Below, piece by piece: positions 48,785-57,137 of a stretch of 61,813 nt of DNA. The position numbers and the translations under genes are program-made. The notes under the pieces are model-generated. The model was not told the DNA's origin, did no database searches, and worked only from the letters and a program-made list of their open reading frames with translations. The stretch comes from a virus: positions 1-61,813 of the IMG/VR virus record IMGVR_UViG_3300009639_000001. The stretch is one strand, 5' to 3'. The first letter of the stretch is position 1. Each line of letters starts with the position of its first letter.

Positions 48785-50734
48785 TCAAAAAGGTTCTGTT
48801 TTTGGCTTTGCTTTATAAGTTGCATGCGGTCCTAATAATAATTCTCCACTATCTAACATTCTTTTCATTATTTTACGAACTGTATTTCTATTTTTCCCAA
48901 GTTCACTTCCAACTTCTGCAGGTGTTAATCCATCAGAATTAGCTCGCAGCAAATCAATAATATTTTGTTGTTCATAAGTTCTTTTAACTTCTTGCGCCGT
49001 CCCAATCAAAGTCCATCCCATAGTTTTATCATCTTTCTTCAACGCGAGTTCCTGCTCGTCTACATCCCTCCCTGTAATTTTCAGTACAGCATCCCCAACC
49101 ATTCTCGCCCGATCCAACACCGCGATGGTATCTGCTGCTCCGGTTATGCCGGAAGATCCGCTCACGGTTTGCACGAAATCGCCGTCAGGTGCTTTTTTCA
49201 AATGGTGCACTAGTATAATTCCAATCACCATTTTGTCTGCCAACTGTTTAATCTCAGCAGCTGCCAAGTAATCCGCCGAATATGCATTTTCGCTGCTCGT
49301 AGCTCCCCGCCGGAATAACTGGAACGTATCTATGACGACTAACTTCGCGCCGGTATCTAGAATATGCTGTTCCAGTTCTTGCAGGCCCCCATCATCAGCT
49401 CGTGGAATAGTCCGAAGCAAATATAGGTTATCGGGTTGTTTCGCGCCCGCTGCCAGAAGTTCGAGCCTGGATTTAAGCCGACGTTTTGTATCTTCCAGTC
49501 CAAGATAGATTGCTGGCCGGGAATCCAGTTTGATTTTCCCCATCGCACTCCCGCCATAAGCGACCGCCAGTGCCAAGGACAACGCGAGCCACGACTTACC
49601 AACTTTGGGACGGCCACACAAAAATGTCAGGCCGGTCGGCACGATCCCTGGGATAATCCATACGGGTTCTGGGATATCTTCTTGGGATAACTGCGCAGCG
49701 GATTGCAGGGATGTCTTCTGTTTTATTGGCTCTCCTGTTTTCCGGCATAATGACCATGGATTTTTTACTCCGCAACCGGACGCCGGACAGCCTGCAAAAC
49801 CGAGGGACCGGATAAATTCACAAGATTGCGGTGCAGGATTGCTCCTGGCGTGAATATATTTCTTATCCGTTTCTCTGACCGAATAACGATCATATGTAAT
49901 TGATATTTCGTGACACGCTGTTAATCCATCCGAACACCTTGAAATATTTGTCATCATCGCGTACCAATATGGTTCTGATAATGTTTTTGCATGATCATAG
50001 CAGTGTTTTATGAAAGAACATTTATTGAGGAGTTCTGTTGCAGGTCCATCTCCTGGGCGTTGCTCAAATAATTTAACGCATGTTTTAGTAAATTCCTTAT
50101 CAGTCGATTCCGGTAAAACAGAATCAAAGTCATCGGGATTATAACGAATACTCGAAGAATGAATGATTTTAACCGGAACCGGTTCGAACTTATAGTTTGT
50201 TGTGCCGGGAATTCTGAGTATCCGACATAGATCCGCTGTTTTATCGAATTTCCAGTTATATTTAAGTCCCCGATTATAAAAATACTGTTGAAATCGGTGC
50301 AGTAGATCCGCTGCTCTCATGCGTTCTTCTGGCTCAGATATATCCCATATTTCTTTGAATAACCAATAGCCATGTAATCCATGGCCTGAGTCCACGAGTA
50401 TAGATGGTAAAAATTGATCTTCACGGAGGAAATCAATGATGTTTTTTAGCGTTTCCGGTACATTATTTTTCGTAGGTGACTTTCGGTCAAAGTCAAACCA
50501 GAACCCAGGGATAAATGAAACCGTGTCGTTTGTTGTGCGACCGGTTGATTTTTTCTCTTTGGCAAGTCCTACTCCGAAGTAGATGTCTTTTTTTTGCTTG
50601 GCTAATTTAGTAATCGTGTTGCAAATTGCCGGTAAATTATTCACCGGCAACCACACTGTTTTTCCATCTTGAAGCGTCCAGATTGTTATAAATCCTTCAA
50701 CTTCAGCATATAAATCCTGTAAAAATTCGATCAT
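48785..50734 (-). CDS. Replicase: prim-pol-like N-terminus fused to a RepA/DnaB-like (AAA_25) ATPase and a C-terminal wHTH
   Basis: Walker A GRPKVGKS; Walker B VVIDTF; N-terminal primase-polymerase-like region; adjacent iterons. Confidence 0.8.
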   Translation of the reverse strand: MIEFLQDLYAEVEGFITIWTLQDGKTVWLPVNNLPAICNTITKLAKQKKDIYFGVGLAKEKKSTGRTTNDTVSFIPGFWFDFDRKSPTKNNVPETLKNIIDFLREDQFLPSILVDSGHGLHGYWLFKEIWDISEPEERMRAADLLHRFQQYFYNRGLKYNWKFDKTADLCRILRIPGTTNYKFEPVPVKIIHSSSIRYNPDDFDSVLPESTDKEFTKTCVKLFEQRPGDGPATELLNKCSFIKHCYDHAKTLSEPYWYAMMTNISRCSDGLTACHEISITYDRYSVRETDKKYIHARSNPAPQSCEFIRSLGFAGCPASGCGVKNPWSLCRKTGEPIKQKTSLQSAAQLSQEDIPEPVWIIPGIVPTGLTFLCGRPKVGKSWLALSLALAVAYGGSAMGKIKLDSRPAIYLGLEDTKRRLKSRLELLAAGAKQPDNLYLLRTIPRADDGGLQELEQHILDTGAKLVVIDTFQLFRRGATSSENAYSADYLAAAEIKQLADKMVIGIILVHHLKKAPDGDFVQTVSGSSGITGAADTIAVLDRARMVGDAVLKITGRDVDEQELALKKDDKTMGWTLIGTAQEVKRTYEQQNIIDLLRANSDGLTPAEVGSELGKNRNTVRKIMKRMLDSGELLLGPHATYKAKPKTEPF

Positions 50735-50743
50735 TTCGCACCC

Positions 50744-50929
50744 TCATTTTTTGGGTTTACATTTTGGATAGCACTCCCACCAATATTCATCTTCATGATT
50801 CATTATCGTTAATTGTTTCGGTTGTGGCGGTTTCAGTGGCTCTAGGCCGTGTTTTAACAGCAATGCAATGATTAGTTCCTGCGCTCCTTCAAAAGTAGCG
50901 CTGAATACCCTGCAAGGAAATATAATCAT
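50744..50929 (-). CDS. Hypothetical small protein
   Basis: 61-aa ORF. Confidence 0.35.
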   Translation of the reverse strand: MIIFPCRVFSATFEGAQELIIALLLKHGLEPLKPPQPKQLTIMNHEDEYWWECYPKCKPKK

Positions 50930-51411
50930 GATGGCCCCAATACGATCTCAATAGCTTGTTCCACGGATCGCGCGACACCAGCTCGACATCCACGGTTTTC
51001 CATTAGTTGCAGGAAATTAAGCTGCTCCGGTTTTACTCTGCCGGTCGCGGTTTTCACTTCGATAAATGCAGCAGTTCCTATAGTTGTCCCAACCATTTCC
51101 GGCGTGATAATTACCGGCACTACACAAAAAATATCTGAAAATCCCGGCGGTAATCCGCTGTCAAATGGCCGAGCTGCGGAAATATATAATCCGCCGTTTT
51201 CTGTATGTTTAATATCGTTGCCGGTCCATGCTCGGCCAACATTGACACGAAATACCGGGACTTGCCCTCTCGATTGGATCGATATCTGGTTCTTCATTTC
51301 GCGCATTAAATCGGCTTCTCGCAACTGTTTCTCCCTCCATGCATTTTTGACATATATCATCATTTGTTTGCCGGCAGTTTTCGCAAAGGTCCATTTAATT
51401 GTCAAACCCAA
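50926..51411 (-). CDS. VRR-NUC domain nuclease
   Basis: GFSDIFCVVP...AFIEVKTATGRVKPEQLNFL... (PD-(D/E)xK core of VRR-NUC). Confidence 0.7.
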   Translation of the reverse strand: MGLTIKWTFAKTAGKQMMIYVKNAWREKQLREADLMREMKNQISIQSRGQVPVFRVNVGRAWTGNDIKHTENGGLYISAARPFDSGLPPGFSDIFCVVPVIITPEMVGTTIGTAAFIEVKTATGRVKPEQLNFLQLMENRGCRAGVARSVEQAIEIVLGPS

Positions 51412-52009
51412 AAATTATTCTTACATTTTCGGGAAAGCCAAGTTCTTGTAATTTTGGAATACATTCATCAATGAATTTTCCAACGCTCCAACTATAAGGA
51501 ACTGTCCAAGTTATATGAGTATAATAATAAAATCCATCTTGTTTTTCATAACTACCATCGATAATTAAATCCATTATTTCAGGTAAAACATTTTCAATCA
51601 TTTTTCCACAAATATTATTTGGCCATGAACTAGGATAACCTTGTTGTTTAAATTTAGTATATTGTTCTTCATTAACAATTCCATAATGAATAGTTACTTG
51701 ATCCCAATCAAATGATAATAATTCGGCTAGTGTTATATAAGAAATACTATGATAAAACTCTTCTTCATCATTTAATTCTTTAATAACTTCAATTGATGCA
51801 TTATTTGGTAATCCTCGATTATTAGAAATACTATTGAATCCTGTTCCTGTAATAACTCCAGCAAAACCAGAACCATTACGAACATTACCAAGGATAGCGA
51901 ATAAATCATAATTTCGACCATGATACAACCAAAATAAATTATTATTTTTTTCAACTACTTGCCATTTATCATCAATACAATTTTCCACACAAATATGGAT
52001 ATCTGTTCC
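51395..52009 (-). CDS. Hypothetical protein
   Basis: Start at MGTDIHICVE (52007-52009), just after the helicase stop. Confidence 0.5.
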   Translation of the reverse strand, partial: GTDIHICVENCIDDKWQVVEKNNNLFWLYHGRNYDLFAILGNVRNGSGFAGVITGTGFNSISNNRGLPNNASIEVIKELNDEEEFYHSISYITLAELLSFDWDQVTIHYGIVNEEQYTKFKQQGYPSSWPNNICGKMIENVLPEIMDLIIDGSYEKQDGFYYYTHITWTVPYSWSVGKFIDECIPKLQELGFPENVRIIFGFDN

Positions 52010-52011
52010 CA

Positions 52012-54213
52012 TTATTTCATCCCTTTCAATGATATTAATCGATCCCATTCCTGGTTTAGTTCTTTCCAACTAAAACGGATTTTTTTTGACTCACACGTAA
52101 ATTTTACCCATCCTTTAGCATACTTACGCTCGAACGCAATTGCAGTTATTTCATTTTGTGTCCGGCACATTCCCACTTCCATCCGTTTTTGTTTTTTTTC
52201 AATAACTGTCAGTTCTTTGAGTTCTCCAGCCTGTTCAGCCAATTGCCGGATCGTTACCGGATAAACATAGCCACAATACGGACAAACATCTGAGGGTTTA
52301 TGGCAACTGTAACATTGCAGGCATTGCCGCAAAGATATCAATGATGGATCTGACTTTTTGTGTTTTTTTATACCTTCGAGACTCCATTCTTGTATATCCG
52401 TAGGCAATCCATGCCGAAATACATTTCCTACAGCATCAATTATGATCGCTGTTTTTCCCAGTCCCGGCCTCATACTCCGCATACTCTGTTGAGTATGGAG
52501 AACCAGCGATTGTGTCGGCCTTAACAAAATTACTACCTCTACATTCGGTAGGTTTAAGCCCTCACCGAATAACTGAACGTTTGACATTATTGTAAGCGTA
52601 CCAGATTTAAACTCGGCTATGGCCTTCCTACGCTCATCTGCTGAGGTTTCACCGTCTACATGCTTGGCTTTATATCCTGCTTCAATAAAACTATCTACTG
52701 TATTCTTACTATGTTGAATACTTGCACAATAAATAATCGCCTGTTTTCCTTCAGCTAATGTTTTATAATGTTGAATTGCTTGACCTGTTATAACCGGTTT
52801 ATCTACTCGGATAGCAATTTCTTTTTGATCATAATCACCCATTTTTATTTTTACACCTTCTAAATCCAATGAAATAGGTGGTGCATAATACTTATAAGGT
52901 GCAAGAAACCCCTGCTCGATTAATTCTGATACCGAAGGACCAATGATTAGCTTATCGCAAATCTCAGATAATCCGTTACCATTTGTTCGAGCAGGAGTTG
53001 CTGTTAATCCGACTAAATATGCTTTTGGGAAATAGTTGAATATTTTTCTCCATGTGTTAGCGACTCCGTGATGACAATTATGGACAGCTATTCCGTTTGC
53101 AATGTAATTGTTATAGGTTTCAACTTCAACATTGTAGACATAACTGTCTTGACACACCCCATTAAATCCTGCATTACTTCTTTGTTGGTAAATCTTAATA
53201 CTATCCACCCTAGCGATTGCAAGAAATTCGTTTTCTTCCTGTCTTGTGCTTGACGATTTAATGAATTGTGCGAACCGCCGTCTACCTCGATAGCAATTTT
53301 TAAATTTAGATTTGCAATGTCTACTTTGTAACAAGGTGGATATCCACTGCCTCGTTTTTGTTTTGTTACGATAGCAAATTCTGTTTCCCAACCTAAAGTT
53401 TCTCCAAGTAGTTTCTGCGGTACGGTTAAACCATGACCATTTCCACCTTGAATACATGGTTTGAAATTCATCTTTCGAAGTGTAGCTATTGACTTTTCTT
53501 TTATCCCTGGCATCCACATAGGATTTTTTTCTTTCATTCTTTTTGAAGCTTCTTTTTGATTTCTTATTACCATATCTAATCGATAACATACTTGACATCT
53601 TTGAGCTTTTTTTGTTTTCATTTCTTTTCCACATTTTGGGCAAATAAACATATATTGAATCACCTGCTTTTATTTCACCGGCTCTCCGCCATCCATCTGG
53701 TGTAAATATTGGATGATTAATCGTACAATTTATTTCTCGATCATCAACTGATAATAAAATCAATTTATCTGGCAAAGGATTTTTGAATAAATTAATTACT
53801 TTTGATTGTTTAATTTCACCTGTTAATTCATTAAAACATGGAACCATATCGCCTACTTTTAATTGTTCTATTGACACATTACCAATCATAGTTCCAGCAA
53901 CAAAACATTCATCACAAATGATAATATCCGGTGGAACTGTTTTATCTAGTCTTCTCACTATTGTTTGAGTCATTGCAAGCTGAATATATGGGTGTTTCCT
54001 GCCGATATCTTCTTGGATCTGTTCTAGTAATTCAATTCGATGAATTAAAAATAGAACTTTATTTCCTCTATCAGCTGCCATATTTGCCATATATGCAATC
54101 ATGGTTCCTTTACCAGCTCCACAAGGCGCTACATAACATACTTTTCTAATATCAGAATTAAATGCTGCACGAATTTCATTAATACCATTAATTTGATAAT
54201 CACGCATTTCCAT
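52012..54213 (-). CDS. SF2 DExH-box helicase interrupted by an intein
   Basis: Motif I APCGAGKGT; motif II split as IIICDE | intein | CHHGVANTW; motif III LTATP; C-terminal Zn-ribbon. Confidence 0.85.
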   Translation of the reverse strand: MEMRDYQINGINEIRAAFNSDIRKVCYVAPCGAGKGTMIAYMANMAADRGNKVLFLIHRIELLEQIQEDIGRKHPYIQLAMTQTIVRRLDKTVPPDIIICDECFVAGTMIGNVSIEQLKVGDMVPCFNELTGEIKQSKVINLFKNPLPDKLILLSVDDREINCTINHPIFTPDGWRRAGEIKAGDSIYVYLPKMWKRNENKKSSKMSSMLSIRYGNKKSKRSFKKNERKKSYVDARDKRKVNSYTSKDEFQTMYSRWKWSWFNRTAETTWRNFRLGNRICYRNKTKTRQWISTLLQSRHCKSKFKNCYRGRRRFAQFIKSSSTRQEENEFLAIARVDSIKIYQQRSNAGFNGVCQDSYVYNVEVETYNNYIANGIAVHNCHHGVANTWRKIFNYFPKAYLVGLTATPARTNGNGLSEICDKLIIGPSVSELIEQGFLAPYKYYAPPISLDLEGVKIKMGDYDQKEIAIRVDKPVITGQAIQHYKTLAEGKQAIIYCASIQHSKNTVDSFIEAGYKAKHVDGETSADERRKAIAEFKSGTLTIMSNVQLFGEGLNLPNVEVVILLRPTQSLVLHTQQSMRSMRPGLGKTAIIIDAVGNVFRHGLPTDIQEWSLEGIKKHKKSDPSLISLRQCLQCYSCHKPSDVCPYCGYVYPVTIRQLAEQAGELKELTVIEKKQKRMEVGMCRTQNEITAIAFERKYAKGWVKFTCESKKIRFSWKELNQEWDRLISLKGMK
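53077..53907 (-). mobile_element. Intein (277 codons) inserted in helicase motif II
   Basis: Starts CFVAGT (block A), TINHPIF (block B), ends VYNVEVETYNNYIANGIAVHN followed by +1 Cys. Confidence 0.8.
53088..53651 (-). CDS. Vsr/DUF559-like (PD-(D/E)xK) endonuclease nested in the intein in a different frame
   Basis: AGGTGA 8 nt before the ATG at 53649-53651; Zn-ribbon CPKCG...CQVC; YKVDIANLNLKIAIEVDGGSHN...DRKK...GWIVLRFTNKEV. Confidence 0.7.
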   Translation of the reverse strand: MFICPKCGKEMKTKKAQRCQVCYRLDMVIRNQKEASKRMKEKNPMWMPGIKEKSIATLRKMNFKPCIQGGNGHGLTVPQKLLGETLGWETEFAIVTKQKRGSGYPPCYKVDIANLNLKIAIEVDGGSHNSLNRQAQDRKKTNFLQSLGWIVLRFTNKEVMQDLMGCVKTVMSTMLKLKPITITLQTE

Positions 54214-54659
54214 TAGAATATTTTAAAATCAGCAGGTAATGGAGATGTTGGATTTTCAATAATTTCCTTAAAGTTATAGAACGTTCCGCCAGTCGAACCG
54301 GCAACTACTTTCATATTGATTGTTTTGCCAACAATGTAAGCCATTGACTCTGCTATTTTGTCACTGTTGCAAGGTAATTGAAGCGATTTAAAATAGTTTT
54401 GCATTTTCCTGATGTTTTTTTTATTTTCGTCGGTATCTTCGGTAATGGAAAATTTGCAATGGATACCAACATAACTACCCTTTTCATTACCATCCAATAA
54501 TAGAAGATTCCATTCAACTTTATTTTCACCGTTTGCAGTTGTGCCATAAGCACATTTTGTAACTTTCGCAGTATATTCCCCAGGATTCAGATCTTTCACG
54601 AAATTTACAAGTGGTTTCTCTGCTTCGCTATTGAAAAAATCTTTAACTTTAATATTCAT
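54213..54659 (-). CDS. DUF669-like phage protein (possible ssDNA-binding role)
   Basis: 148 aa between the exonuclease and helicase genes; weak motif recollection. Confidence 0.35.
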   Translation of the reverse strand: MNIKVKDFFNSEAEKPLVNFVKDLNPGEYTAKVTKCAYGTTANGENKVEWNLLLLDGNEKGSYVGIHCKFSITEDTDENKKNIRKMQNYFKSLQLPCNSDKIAESMAYIVGKTINMKVVAGSTGGTFYNFKEIIENPTSPLPADFKIF

Positions 54660-54679
54660 TTTAAAATCATCCTTTTTAT

Positions 54680-55489
54680 TTAAGTTGGTATTAATTCCGT
54701 ATATGATATTATCTTGTCTATCACTTTAGTCGACCGGCAATATTTGCATAACTCGCATCTTTTTGGTGAAATGGAACCGGATTTTACTTGCAGGATATGC
54801 GGAATATTTTGTTCGACTTTTAAAAGTTCTGCCTTTAAACGTTCCGAATCATTTAATTTTATTATCTGAAGATCTGGAGAATCTTCCTTTGTAACTACAA
54901 CCATAATTGGATCTAATCCATGTTTACGTCCAGAAGCAATGCGTTCCATTTCCTGGTATAATGCAAACTGAATAAAATAATCATATTTTTCTATAAAGGA
55001 TACTCTAATATTTTTACCTTCCTGTTCAATCCAACATGGATCATGTATAGATTTGGCGGTTTTCAAGTCTACAAACCAGCCATTTACTGTATTCAAAGAA
55101 TCGATCTTACCTTTCCAGAGGGTTCCAAACATTTCCGCGATAATGGGGACTTCCTTTTCTCCTGCAAGCACAAATCGGGCATACTTGGATCGTTCTAGTG
55201 TTTCAATCATTTCATCGCATTTTTTAAAACCAGCTTTTAACTCGCCTTTAGTTGGCCCCTTTGATGAAATAATTTCAGGATGTTTCGCGATAAATTCCGG
55301 CAATTTCCCCTCATTCCAAGCATGTACATAATTGCCTTCCAAGAAAGCATCTTTTTCTTCACGTTCATATACTCCTGAAAGTTCCGCCAAAGTCCTGGCT
55401 TCGCAATCAAGGAATGATTTATATTGAGACACAGAAAGATATTTTTTATTTGCTTCAAGAGAATGATAATTTTCGGCAGTTAAATGCAT
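54680..55489 (-). CDS. PD-(D/E)xK exonuclease, Cas4/RecB-like, with a C-terminal Cys cluster
   Basis: GKIDSL...VDLKTAKS core; C-terminal CELCKYC. Confidence 0.65.
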   Translation of the reverse strand: MHLTAENYHSLEANKKYLSVSQYKSFLDCEARTLAELSGVYEREEKDAFLEGNYVHAWNEGKLPEFIAKHPEIISSKGPTKGELKAGFKKCDEMIETLERSKYARFVLAGEKEVPIIAEMFGTLWKGKIDSLNTVNGWFVDLKTAKSIHDPCWIEQEGKNIRVSFIEKYDYFIQFALYQEMERIASGRKHGLDPIMVVVTKEDSPDLQIIKLNDSERLKAELLKVEQNIPHILQVKSGSISPKRCELCKYCRSTKVIDKIISYTELIPT

Positions 55490-55588
55490 TTATCATCATC
55501 CCCTTTTAAAAATATCCAGTAAATAATTAAGCCAAGAAAAAAAACTGAAAAAATTCCGATTAAACAGCCGATAATATATTCCATTTCA

Positions 55589-56131
55589 TCACTTCCCATC
55601 TAAATAAGTAGATGATTGATCAGCGATTTGCAGAGCTAACACTAATGACCACTTTTTCATTGCCTTGTTTAATGCTTGTCGATCAGCATAATCTGTAGCT
55701 CCCCAGGCTCCCATATGCCAGCGAATGGCCATCATTTCATCTATTGATAATCGAATAAATATTTGCGACAAAATTACTGATTTTTCACCATGACCTAATG
55801 GAACATGATCATCAATAGTATAATGAGATTGTTTTTCCCATTTGCCGGTTTCTTCATTTTTCACATTTCGATAACTGATGATATAAAAATCAGCTTTGCA
55901 AATATCATGAAGTAATGCAGCAATGATCATTGAATTATTGTCATATTGAATTATTTTTATTAAATTGTCGTAAACTGCTAAAGAATGTTCCAGTAAACCC
56001 ATGGGTTGCGCACCATGAAATTTAGAACTTGCAGGAGCTGTAAAAAAATCGGTGGTTTCCAACCATTCAATCAATTTTTCTATTCCAATGCGTTCCGTTG
56101 ATTTTAATAATTCAATAAATCTATTTTTCAT
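55589..56131 (-). CDS. HD-domain phosphohydrolase
   Basis: H...ALLHDICK...H pattern. Confidence 0.7.
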   Translation of the reverse strand: MKNRFIELLKSTERIGIEKLIEWLETTDFFTAPASSKFHGAQPMGLLEHSLAVYDNLIKIIQYDNNSMIIAALLHDICKADFYIISYRNVKNEETGKWEKQSHYTIDDHVPLGHGEKSVILSQIFIRLSIDEMMAIRWHMGAWGATDYADRQALNKAMKKWSLVLALQIADQSSTYLDGK

Positions 56132-56753
56132 TAGCAGCCTCCCATGCAATTTCAGCTTTAGTTTTTTCGACGGTAGGAGTTACATCTATAAATTCCTGTC
56201 GTTCTTCAGATGAATGGATTCCCATCGTTAACTCAGGTGCATATGTACGGATCAGGAAAGCAGCTGCTCGATACTGGAGCATTAACTCAGGCATAGTTTT
56301 CCACTTGTTGCCGGGTTTTGTTGCCCATCCTTCTTCCTTGGCCATCTTAATAGAAACTTTTGTTCCTTTTAGCAAATCGCCAGTTCTGATTTCGGTAAAA
56401 TAGGCCCTGCACGACCAGTCATCTTGTCCTTCGGTGCCTGACCATTCATAACGAATAGGCGTGAACTTACCGCAATCATTCGCAATCGCAATCATAAATT
56501 TACTTGACCAGGATGGTTTGCCTTGAATAAAATCCATATTTTGCATAACCATCATGGCATTACAGCCCACGCGATTGGCATATTCGAGAGCTAGAAAGCA
56601 GTTTGCCGGTTCGTTGCGATAAACCGCCGGGATAATTGTAGATTTTGATAAGAATTCAGCGAATTTCATTATGTTTCCATCTTCCGGTAAAACCATAGGA
56701 GTTTCTGGAGCGACTACAATATCTTTTTTATCTTCAGAAAATATATCTGTCAT
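56121..56753 (-). CDS. recT: RecT-like single-strand annealing protein
   Basis: Family-like C-terminal segment KWKTMPELMLQYRAAAFLIRTYAPE; neighbours are an exonuclease and an SSB-like gene. Confidence 0.55.
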   Translation of the reverse strand: MTDIFSEDKKDIVVAPETPMVLPEDGNIMKFAEFLSKSTIIPAVYRNEPANCFLALEYANRVGCNAMMVMQNMDFIQGKPSWSSKFMIAIANDCGKFTPIRYEWSGTEGQDDWSCRAYFTEIRTGDLLKGTKVSIKMAKEEGWATKPGNKWKTMPELMLQYRAAAFLIRTYAPELTMGIHSSEERQEFIDVTPTVEKTKAEIAWEAANEK

Positions 56754-56977
56754 TTTTGCTCCTTTGCAGGCATAACGATCATCTTGAAATCGTGTACGAT
56801 ATCAAGTAATAAATAACCAAGTTTAAGATGCTGGCTAATAGCTTCATCAATTTTATTTTCGATACTTATCAAATCATATTCAGACATATCTTTTAAAACT
56901 CTACGATCTGGAGGTAATAATTTTGATAATATATCGGCCATAGTTGGATTAATATTATTCATTTTCCATCTCCTCAA
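56750..56977 (-). CDS. Hypothetical protein
   Basis: 75-aa ORF, overlapping starts and stops. Confidence 0.4.
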   Translation of the reverse strand: MRRWKMNNINPTMADILSKLLPPDRRVLKDMSEYDLISIENKIDEAISQHLKLGYLLLDIVHDFKMIVMPAKEQK

Positions 56978-57137
56978 TATGTTCTTTAATCGCTTGAATC
57001 ATCCCATTGGTATTATCTGAATTGTCTCTTTCAAAACAATGTATTAACCCTTGAAGATCTTTTTTTGACAATATTCGTAGTAATGGACTATGAAATTTCA
57101 CATAATTGTAACCACTTATAAAGTCATTGCTTTCCAT
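56955..57137 (-). CDS. Hypothetical protein
   Basis: 60-aa ORF. Confidence 0.35.
   Translation of the reverse strand: MESNDFISGYNYVKFHSPLLRILSKKDLQGLIHCFERDNSDNTNGMIQAIKEHIEEMENE

Follow-up and report, generated by a model that had tools for sequence, protein, structure and literature searches.

A phage SF2 helicase intein overprinted in the +1 frame by the gene of an EDxHD-type homing endonuclease

According to Dassa et al. (2009; PMC2677866), a fractured gene consists of split-intein halves that surround a free-standing Vsr-like or GIY-YIG endonuclease gene. Hairpins that sequester the ribosome-binding site (RBS) were observed in that study, and Vsr-like homing endonucleases (HENs) were described as "not known to be present in inteins". 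Endonuclease open reading frames (ORFs) that are out of frame with a contiguous intein have also been reported. Antisense or alternative-frame LAGLIDADG ORFs in inteins are attributed to Gorbalenya (1998), as cited in two preprints (bioRxiv 10.1101/2025.01.02.630785 and 10.64898/2026.09.14.751524). In the first of these, Gosselin, Arsenault & Gogarten described antisense LAGLIDADG, antisense VSR-like and same-strand endonuclease-VII-like HENs in actinophage inteins that are hosted by DNA polymerase, (minor) capsid, terminase and thymidylate synthase genes, and in the second, Phillips et al. described a "+2 ORF" LAGLIDADG in a cyanobacterial dnaX intein. Both preprints call the out-of-frame architecture rare, and Vsr-like HENs are otherwise reported there with split inteins only. 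In this study, we describe an intein in an SF2 helicase gene of the virus record IMGVR_UViG_3300009639_000001 (positions 1 to 61,813; this whole stretch of 61.8 kb is referred to as the window), in which the gene of a Vsr-like HEN is nested on the same strand in the +1 frame.

Two additional systems are relevant to the comparison. The endonuclease I-Bth0305I, whose gene lies within a group I intron of recA, carries N-terminal motifs of the NUMOD type (PMC3239194; PDB 3R3P), and the composite E, D, H, D motif denotes the EDxHD family (Taylor et al., 2011; PMC3239194). In insertions of the ShiLan type, an HNH endonuclease is hidden out of frame within the gene of a phage methylase (Arsenault et al., 2025; PMC11855218).

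Every feature of the helicase, intein and endonuclease locus is carried by the minus strand of the window:

52012..54213, minus strand: uninterrupted ORF of the SF2 (ResIII/Helicase_C) helicase precursor, 733 amino acids (aa), from Pfam and the alignment of homologues
53908..54213, minus strand: N-extein, 102 aa, with the end ...PPDIIICDE, which is the first half of motif II (DExH)
53077..53907, minus strand: class-1 intein, 277 aa, from Cys1 to His-Asn, from Pfam Intein_splicing and the translation
53644..53907, minus strand: N-terminal splicing region of the intein, aa 1-88, with block A (CFVAGT), block B (CTINHPIF) and ...GDSIYVY, conserved in relatives
53230..53643, minus strand: intein-frame read-through linker, aa 89-226, K/R/S-rich, no domain
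53077..53229, minus strand: C-terminal splicing region of the intein, aa 227-277, with ..ARVDSIKIY.., block F (DSYVYNVEVE) and block G (NGIAVHN)
52012..53076, minus strand: C-extein, beginning with the +1 Cys (CHHGVANTW..., which completes motif II), with Helicase_C and a zinc ribbon at the C-terminus
53660..53665, minus strand: Shine-Dalgarno sequence AGGTGA, 8 nucleotides (nt) upstream of the ATG of the HEN, duplex dG -5.7, which also encodes Ala-Gly-Asp of the intein
53088..53651, minus strand: nested HEN gene in the +1 frame relative to the helicase, 187 aa and TAG, from DUF559, the catalytic columns, a profile comparison with PDB, a structure model and Foldseek
53091..53210, minus strand: dual-coding segment, HEN aa 148-187 over intein aa ~233-273, both frames conserved

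The helicase ORF matches ResIII (E=3e-22) and Helicase_C (E=2e-17) in Pfam, and its frame reads IIICDE, CFVAGT, the remainder of the 277 aa up to GIAVHN, and CHHGVANTW, such that motif II is split by the intein. The Cys1 nucleophile directly follows ...CDE, and CF.AGT is kept among the relatives. The TxxH of block B is present at intein aa 61-68 (C-T-I-N-H-P-I-F), and the terminal His-Asn is followed by the +1 Cys (GIAVHN-CHH, the hyphen here and below marking a splice junction), a junction that reads VHN-CHH in nearly all relatives. The Pfam family PF14890 (Intein_splicing) was matched with 49.3 and 51.9 bits against a cut-off of 35.8, with the N and C parts flanking the linker. Homologues that have no intein, which are 440-460 aa long, align straight across the DE-xHH insertion site. 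The initial annotation had proposed an intein in helicase motif II with Cys1, TxxH, HN and a +1 Cys, and all of these elements were found in the translation. It had also described the middle of the intein as low-complexity sequence that lacks endonuclease motifs; this description holds for aa 89-226, which are rich in K, R and S and in which the Pfam scan found neither a domain nor an endonuclease. The composition of this linker among the relatives tracks the GC content of the genome. A group I intron carrying the HEN was ruled out by the Rfam scan of positions 50000-57000, which was empty.

The HEN gene begins with the ATG at 53651 and ends with the TAG at 53088-53090, and its frame lies one base downstream of the helicase frame. 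In the ORF listing, it is extended to a GTG at 53663, which is located within the Shine-Dalgarno sequence. At its N-terminus, the protein has a CxxC...CxxC zinc ribbon, which is followed by a helical region and by a nuclease core of the DUF559/Vsr-like (EDxHD) type with the core residues D111, E122, D124, H128 and D137, which are invariant in an alignment of 29 sequences including that of the window and in 66 loci. The 187-aa ORF with its Shine-Dalgarno sequence, ATG, zinc ribbon and DUF559/Vsr core was present as first described, and DUF559 (PF04480) was matched with E=3.5e-13 (49.8 bits, cut-off 20.6). The zinc ribbon gave weak matches to Pfam zinc ribbons and occurs as one copy in the window and as one to three copies in the relatives; no NUMOD-type N-terminal module was matched by Pfam. 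A profile of the family compared with PDB sequences identified 3hrl, a DUF559 protein (2.2e-9), and 3r3p, the catalytic domain of I-Bth0305I (0.011). The AlphaFold2 (AF2) model built from the 29-sequence alignment has a pLDDT (predicted local distance difference test) of 92, and the top three Foldseek matches are 3r3p chains B and A (probability 0.99, TM (template modelling) score 0.51-0.54 on the target) followed by 3hrl (probability 1.00, TM 0.70), with E-values of only ~3e-3 to 1e-2. The window HEN retains the family-invariant residues C22, N43, D111, E122, D124, G125, H128, D137, L144, W149, R153 and N156, and judged by these residues and by the model, it looks functional as a nuclease.

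Gene callers do not call the nested HEN gene. The exact HEN protein is absent from a collection of 15 billion proteins, in which the helicase precursor is present. An exhaustive hidden Markov model search of 1.84 billion cluster representatives returned 918 HEN clusters at E<=1e-30, and the best 150 of these are all stand-alone proteins of 158-329 aa with the exception of one protein (P0257, described below). Among these best 150 clusters, none has a HEN of this family in frame within a full intein, and the family appears essentially never to serve as an in-frame intein domain.

The locus resembles the overlapping-ORF inteins of actinophages and cyanobacteria in that the intein is contiguous, the in-frame read-through is structureless and the HEN, read in another frame, has a start and a Shine-Dalgarno sequence of its own. 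It also resembles them in that purifying selection acts on the HEN frame and not on the intein frame; such inteins have been proposed to originate from mini-inteins that a free-standing HEN invaded secondarily. However, the window has a same-strand +1 HEN of the EDxHD/Vsr-like type in the DExH box of an SF2 helicase, and ~40 codons of this HEN are co-encoded with intein block F and the strand that precedes it. Moreover, the architecture is rare among the inteins described previously, whereas it is the rule in the family of the window (121/129 loci). The general architecture is already known; the combination of HEN family, strand and host, the dual coding with the splicing domain, and the very large, phylum-spanning family are what differ. 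In the searchable literature, of which the coverage is incomplete and which does not include Gorbalenya (1998), we found no earlier account of a contiguous helicase intein that contains a Vsr-like HEN on the same strand.

With the fractured genes, the locus shares the Vsr-like HEN superfamily, a host gene of phage DNA metabolism and the position of the HEN at the canonical endonuclease loop of the intein. In both cases, the 3′ end of the HEN gene overlaps the sequence coding for the C-intein, by 6-69 bp in the loci of Dassa et al. and by ~120 nt in the window, which agrees with the statement in the initial annotation that the ORF runs into the codons of blocks F and G. However, the host ORF of the window is unbroken and has neither a stop after the N-intein nor a restart before the C-intein, and therefore splicing would occur in cis. 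A host split into two ORFs, the hallmark of a fractured gene, is not found in the window. As in I-Bth0305I, a C-terminal Vsr-like core with E..D..H..D follows an N-terminal DNA-binding region, and both endonucleases are tied to self-splicing elements in phage DNA-metabolism genes. The window HEN differs in having a zinc ribbon and no NUMOD, and its sequence is closer to DUF559/3hrl (2e-9) than to 3r3p. As in ShiLan, the HEN is out of frame on the same strand, the host frame is open through the insert and gene callers miss the HEN; the ShiLan insertion has no splicing domain and is thought to be retained as a loop, whereas the window HEN is flanked by a complete class-1 intein. Compared with canonical LAGLIDADG and HNH inteins, the life-style, the position of the endonuclease between blocks B and F, and the insertion in a catalytic motif of a DNA-metabolism enzyme are alike. 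The difference is that the endonuclease of those inteins is an in-frame domain of the intein, whereas that of the window is a separate polypeptide.

At first glance, an intein frame that stays open beneath the whole gene of an unrelated protein could be a matter of chance. Over the 187 HEN codons, the intein frame contains 0 stops and the third frame contains 24. Permutation of the synonymous codons of the HEN yielded a mean of 9.6 intein-frame stops, and sampling of codons according to the window's own usage yielded a mean of 13.9; under either null, 0/20000 randomised sequences were open. The continuity of the intein frame had been suspected to be selected, which these randomisations confirm, and the chance previously put at 1e-4 to 1e-5 was about right or slightly conservative. 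How the stops are avoided can be read from the sequence. At 55 at-risk positions of the window HEN, where the next codon starts with AA, AG or GA, the third base is never T, whereas T occupies 48/131 of the third positions elsewhere. The same holds in 66 unique loci, which were preselected for an open host frame and for which the more informative figure is the 121/129 loci that are open: the host frame has 0 stops across the HEN versus 447 expected, and a third-position T precedes AA, AG or GA codons in 0/2922 cases versus 1929/7819 elsewhere. This stop-avoidance rule (no NNT before AA/AG/GA) may provide a quantifiable signature for finding further hidden overprinted genes.

The choice of the frame can also be examined on this basis. 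In the observed offset, a host codon is composed of position 3 of one HEN codon and positions 1 and 2 of the next, and the possible host-frame stops are all of the forms NNT followed by AA, AG or GA. A T-to-C change that is synonymous in the HEN therefore suffices to remove any of them. According to a dynamic-programming search, every one of the 66 HEN proteins can be encoded in the observed offset with 0 host-frame stops. The other same-strand offset would force a mean of 2.1 stops on the 66 HENs and 3 on that of the window; such stops arise, for example, where Met precedes Lys or Asn, as within the conserved RMK motif. We infer that the +1 offset has an advantage over the other frame for this reason.

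The statements on selection that follow are derived from mean pairwise identities and positional differences in a codon alignment of the 66 HENs. Across HEN aa 32-147, which lie over the linker, the identity is 47% in the HEN frame versus 23% in the intein frame, and the nucleotide differences at HEN codon positions 1, 2 and 3 are 0.43, 0.37 and 0.64. The better conservation of the HEN frame and the high variability of its third position are the mark of a gene that, across the linker, is under selection in the HEN frame only. The absence of stops is the sole detectable constraint on the linker as read in the intein frame.

The pattern changes toward the 3′ end of the HEN gene. For HEN aa 148-176, the identity is 56% in the HEN frame versus 46% in the intein frame, and the variability at the third position falls from 0.64 to 0.40. 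For HEN aa 163-176, the intein frame (..G..CPDG.VYN.E, which includes block F) is as conserved as the HEN frame. In the dual-coding segment of the window, the HEN sequence GWIVLRFTNKEV...CVKTVMSTMLKLK lies over RVDSIKIY...DSYVYNVEVE of the intein. Within this segment, the HEN frame encodes the C-terminal helices and one strand of the nuclease core, in a part that aligns to 3hrl, and the intein frame encodes the strands of the C-terminal splicing region. Both frames are constrained in the last ~30-40 HEN codons, which are truly dual coding; ~40 codons encode structural parts of two unrelated proteins and have been conserved across phyla. The HEN tail "CV.TV.STISK", which occurs family-wide, is the +1 reading of the intein sequence "VYNIEVE", and free-standing relatives of the HEN lack this tail or have an altered one. 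Because the tail and the intein motif share nucleotides, an in-frame junction between the HEN and the C-intein would cost one of the two motifs. Among the relatives, the HEN stop always lies 4-18 codons before the splice junction, and the extein is never overprinted; in the window, 5 codons separate the stop from the last residue of the intein.

The conservation of a start site indicates how the endonuclease could be produced. In 65/66 loci, a start codon, mostly ATG, directly precedes the first Cys of the zinc ribbon. The 15 nt upstream of it pair with the anti-Shine-Dalgarno sequence at <=-5 kcal/mol in 56% of the 66 loci versus 19% of random positions. In many of the loci, the HEN frame is closed by a stop located 0-10 codons ahead of this start (6 in the window). 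The simplest model for the production of the HEN is that ribosomes initiate internally on the helicase mRNA.

We then compared the locus with its relatives. A tblastn search with the nested protein against 50,697 phage genomes matched 41 records, and all of the listed matches fall under coding sequences annotated as helicase or helicase-like. Six loci are from cultured phages (Pseudomonas phage MR14; Vibrio phages CP-T1, 104E43.1, K391 and 1.088.O; Corynebacterium phage phi673). In 6/6 of these, the annotated helicase coding sequence is uninterrupted, the HEN homologue lies in a +1 open stretch of 215-263 codons, and the intein occupies the same site, [Q/T]DE-CF[P/V]AGT...VHN-CHH. The records of CP-T1, MR14 and phi673 annotate "helicase" alone, without the HEN. 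A pattern scan of IMG/VR found at least 403 loci that encode a relative of the HEN. Among the best 80, which were examined, 76 have a host ORF that spans the +1 HEN, 2 are cut at contig ends and 2 are free-standing HENs. In a set of genomes and metagenome-assembled genomes (MAGs) with one genome per GTDB species, 49 full-length relatives of at least 476 loci were examined, and 45/49 have the same +1 arrangement. The genome and MAG bins are assigned to at least 10 phyla (Chloroflexi, Cyanobacteria, Elusimicrobia, Actinobacteria, Firmicutes, Proteobacteria, Spirochaetes, Verrucomicrobia, Acidobacteria, Patescibacteria and others).

In total, 121/129 examined loci, with the cultured phages CP-T1, MR14 and phi673 among them, have the intein at DE-C, the HEN at +1 and a host frame that is open. 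The HENs of the relatives are only ~40-61% identical to that of the window, and thus they represent independent, long-diverged copies. No close relative of the window copy is present in the phage collection, as a blastn search with the helicase region returned just short matches of 70-76% in the intein and HEN of phi673 and two Vibrio phages. Several related helicases (L028, L105, L106, L057, L065 and L075) were observed to have two inteins. Besides the overprinted intein of motif II, they have a mini-intein, or an in-frame intein of the LAGLIDADG type, at or close to the P-loop (Walker A), for example ..AATG-CFVGDT...VIVHN-SGKTE in L028. These helicases are intein hot spots.

The distribution of the intein among helicases is sporadic. 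The closest homologues of the window helicase are ~440-460 aa long, share 44-69% identity with it and lack the intein; their motif reads DE[H/F/A/C]HH. Among the 120 homologues listed, only 2 have an intein, namely the window's own protein and P0227. The x of DExHH is nearly always Cys, occasionally Ser, in intein-bearing alleles, and it is H, F, A or C in intein-less ones. The cultured Vibrio phages K391 and K453 have exteins that are 95-98% identical and different intein alleles at the same site. In K391 (L005), a 356-aa intein with a HEN is found, and in K453 (L088) and about ten other Vibrio phages, a mini-intein of 150-153 aa is found. The splicing domains of the two inteins are only ~48% identical, which indicates allele replacement and not in-place decay. 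These two phages, which are cultured and differ essentially at the intein locus only, form a ready pair for homing work. Some pairs of HENs are 60-70% identical with exteins that are <30% identical, in crude local alignments that are of qualitative use. A word-index search with an artificial mini-intein, in which the N and C splicing parts were joined, returned nothing; tblastn against the phages gave matches.

The unit of intein and HEN is not limited to the helicase family of the window. In L038 (a 2383-aa SNF2-like ORF) and L043, it is inserted at DEAH-CFPAGT...VHN-C[Y/F]KN, two residues further along motif II, and L038, L043, L113, L114 and L116 have the intein and the +1 HEN in SNF2-like proteins of ~1600 to >2300 aa. 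These cases suggest ectopic transfer between helicase families. Free-standing HENs lie directly upstream of intein-less SF2 or SNF2-like helicase genes, with an overlap of 17-40 nt at the start, in four loci (L041, 1531-2151; L059, 3306-3938; L103, 3387-4001; L117, 3333-3977), and in L131, the free-standing HEN lies between genes. A truly fractured helicase with a HEN of the window's family is found in L133. The UvsW gene of Salmonella phage S16/STP4-a is fractured at the same DE-C site by a related split intein, whose halves are separated by the ORF of a different nuclease. In S16 (L087, NC_020416.1 104626-107352), gp114 is composed of UvsW-N and the N-intein, gp115 of the C-intein (..GALAHN-CH) and UvsW-C, and gp114.1, a 291-aa ORF with NUMOD3 and a weak match to a TnsA-like nuclease, overlaps both neighbours; the record annotates two "DNA helicase" genes and a hypothetical protein. 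L133 and S16 UvsW have the host split into two ORFs. Finally, in L089 (588-2893; JGI contig Ga0376277_0041324), P0257 is a 496-aa protein of N-extein, N-intein and HEN in one frame, and the C-intein and C-extein continue in the -1 frame. It is the sole such relative and comes from a single contig; a natural frameshift of 1 nt, an N-fused fractured gene and a fault in the assembly could each account for it.

Thus, one intein lineage shows empty, mini, overprinted, fractured and free-standing states, of which the overprinted state is by far the commonest. These states fit the gene-breaking scheme of Dassa et al. (PMC2677866), and with five states in one lineage, the models in which a free-standing HEN invades a mini-intein and in which genes are broken become directly testable. 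The initial annotation had considered the locus to be an intermediate of the fractured-gene arrangement. The link to fractured genes stands (L133 and S16 UvsW); the idea of a rare transitional form does not, as overprinting is the dominant and apparently stable state.

We consider it very probable that the locus is a cis-splicing class-1 intein with a separately translated, +1-overprinted EDxHD HEN and that the intein frame is kept open by selection. The locus would be a composite selfish element of two overlapping genes in the DExH box of a phage SF2 helicase. The intein would be translated within the helicase and would remove itself by protein splicing, leaving DE-C-HH, and the HEN would be translated separately from the internal Shine-Dalgarno sequence and ATG on the helicase mRNA. 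The HEN is written over the central loop of the intein and into the C-terminal splicing region, and the ~140 central codons of the intein would be a stop-free read-through of the HEN that forms a disordered tether between the splicing halves. Synonymous T-to-C changes would keep the helicase as one polypeptide at no amino-acid cost to the nuclease. During co-infection, the HEN would presumably cut intein-less helicase alleles near the DExHH codons; the putative target is the uninterrupted junction GATGAA-TGTCATCAC (the junction in the spliced form is ATTATTTGTGATGAA-TGTCATCACGGAGTC). Repair after the cut would then copy the intein and the HEN jointly, i.e., homing. An intein that tolerates an arbitrary tether of 140-200 residues and a compact EDxHD nuclease may also interest protein engineers. 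In addition, inteins with a hidden HEN are likely misfiled as decaying inteins or mini-inteins, and HEN-bearing inteins would therefore be undercounted.

Several observations weigh against parts of this interpretation. A clear Shine-Dalgarno sequence is absent at 44% of the 66 loci. RNA folding at the HEN start of the window gave z=0.37 and no RBS-sequestering hairpin, and the promoter and terminator scan gave a count not above that of shuffled sequence and no internal promoter. The AF2 model of the intein, which was built from a two-sequence alignment, has a pLDDT of 37 and is uninformative; its strands lie solely in aa 21-88 and 232-276 and are not counted as evidence. With regard to recent homing of the window copy, no pair of near-identical inteins in very different exteins was found, and in the GC profile the intein equals its surroundings and forms no compositional island.

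A broader proposal is that the +1 overprinting is not a passing state but the design that evolution keeps stable in a very large family of composite mobile elements, which would span phyla and have gone unrecognised, with an EDxHD endonuclease locked to a class-1 intein in the DExH box of SF2 helicases. The ~40 dual-coding codons would make the two genes interdependent, the offset would be fixed because it is the only same-strand one that can be kept open synonymously, and the HEN would be made by internal initiation. We offer this proposal tentatively; the constant +1 offset may equally stem from common descent alone. If it is true, the family would be among the largest conserved overlapping-gene families in phages, and all of the gene-breaking stages of Dassa et al. 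would be found within a single intein lineage.

The first alternative is that the window HEN is a decaying or unexpressed relic and the element a mini-intein with a long junk loop. Decay of the HEN after fixation is predicted by the homing-cycle model, mini-intein alleles are known at the insertion site of the window, the composition of the intein matches its surroundings, and the copy has no close relative (phage blastn), its extein homologues being at most 69% identical. However, the ORF of the window is intact with its Shine-Dalgarno sequence, ATG and all of the family-invariant residues, the HEN folds confidently in AF2, and the family-wide substitution patterns indicate purifying selection on the HEN frame. 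We regard a relic as improbable.

The initial annotation also named a recoding-dependent endonuclease, in which a +1 frameshift near 53651 and a -1 shift near 53100 would produce a canonical polypeptide of the intein with its HEN. The overlap of both frames on the same strand makes such a double shift formally possible, and P0257 of L089 indicates that a fusion of N-extein, N-intein and HEN can exist as an ORF. The near-universal start codon, the enrichment of Shine-Dalgarno sequences and the HEN-frame stops near the start give this idea no support, however. Furthermore, no conserved slippery motif or RNA structure was found, the second shift would be needed inside the dual-coding segment, and free-standing members of the HEN family (L041, L059, L103, L117 and L131) are translated on their own. 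Recoding is consequently a very unlikely explanation.

Equally hard to sustain is a dead or non-splicing insertion, in which the helicase would be inactive or the insert kept as a loop, as proposed for ShiLan. Out-of-frame HEN insertions that lack splicing domains do exist (PMC11855218). However, Cys1, TxxH, HN and the +1 Cys are all present in the window and conserved family-wide, and Intein_splicing is matched above its threshold. The insertion splits the catalytic DExH box, where a loop of 277 aa would not be tolerated, and the x of DExHH is nearly always Cys, occasionally Ser, in intein alleles and H, F, A or C in intein-less ones.

Although in the metagenomic contig L089 the N-intein and the HEN are fused by one change of frame, we give practically no credence to an artefact in which two compensating sequencing or assembly indels near 53651 and 53088 displaced an in-frame endonuclease. 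The 6 cultured phages, 76/80 IMG/VR loci and 45/49 genome or MAG loci, at 40-60% identity, all have the HEN at the same +1 offset beneath a host frame that is open. In addition, the HEN core (GW.VLRF.N.EV) and the intein strand (RV.S[V/I]E) share nucleotides such that no in-frame 3′ junction is possible, and none of the best 150 HEN clusters is in frame within a full intein; the compensating indels that the initial annotation had named as its own refutation are thereby excluded.

The genes around the helicase gene, each of them on the minus strand, make up a phage module for recombination and replication:

56121-56753, minus strand: RecT-like
55589-56149, minus strand: HD domain
54680-55489, minus strand: DUF3799 PD-(D/E)XK nuclease
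54213-54659, minus strand: DUF669
51395-52069, minus strand: ORF of 224 aa with no Pfam match, directly downstream of the helicase gene and overlapping its 3′ end by 58 nt
50926-51411, minus strand: VRR-NUC

The window contains no tRNAs, and most of its long ORFs are on the minus strand. A stop-free stretch of 191 codons on the plus strand (50876-51451) lies antisense to the VRR-NUC gene and is probably due to chance in a locally GC-richer segment.

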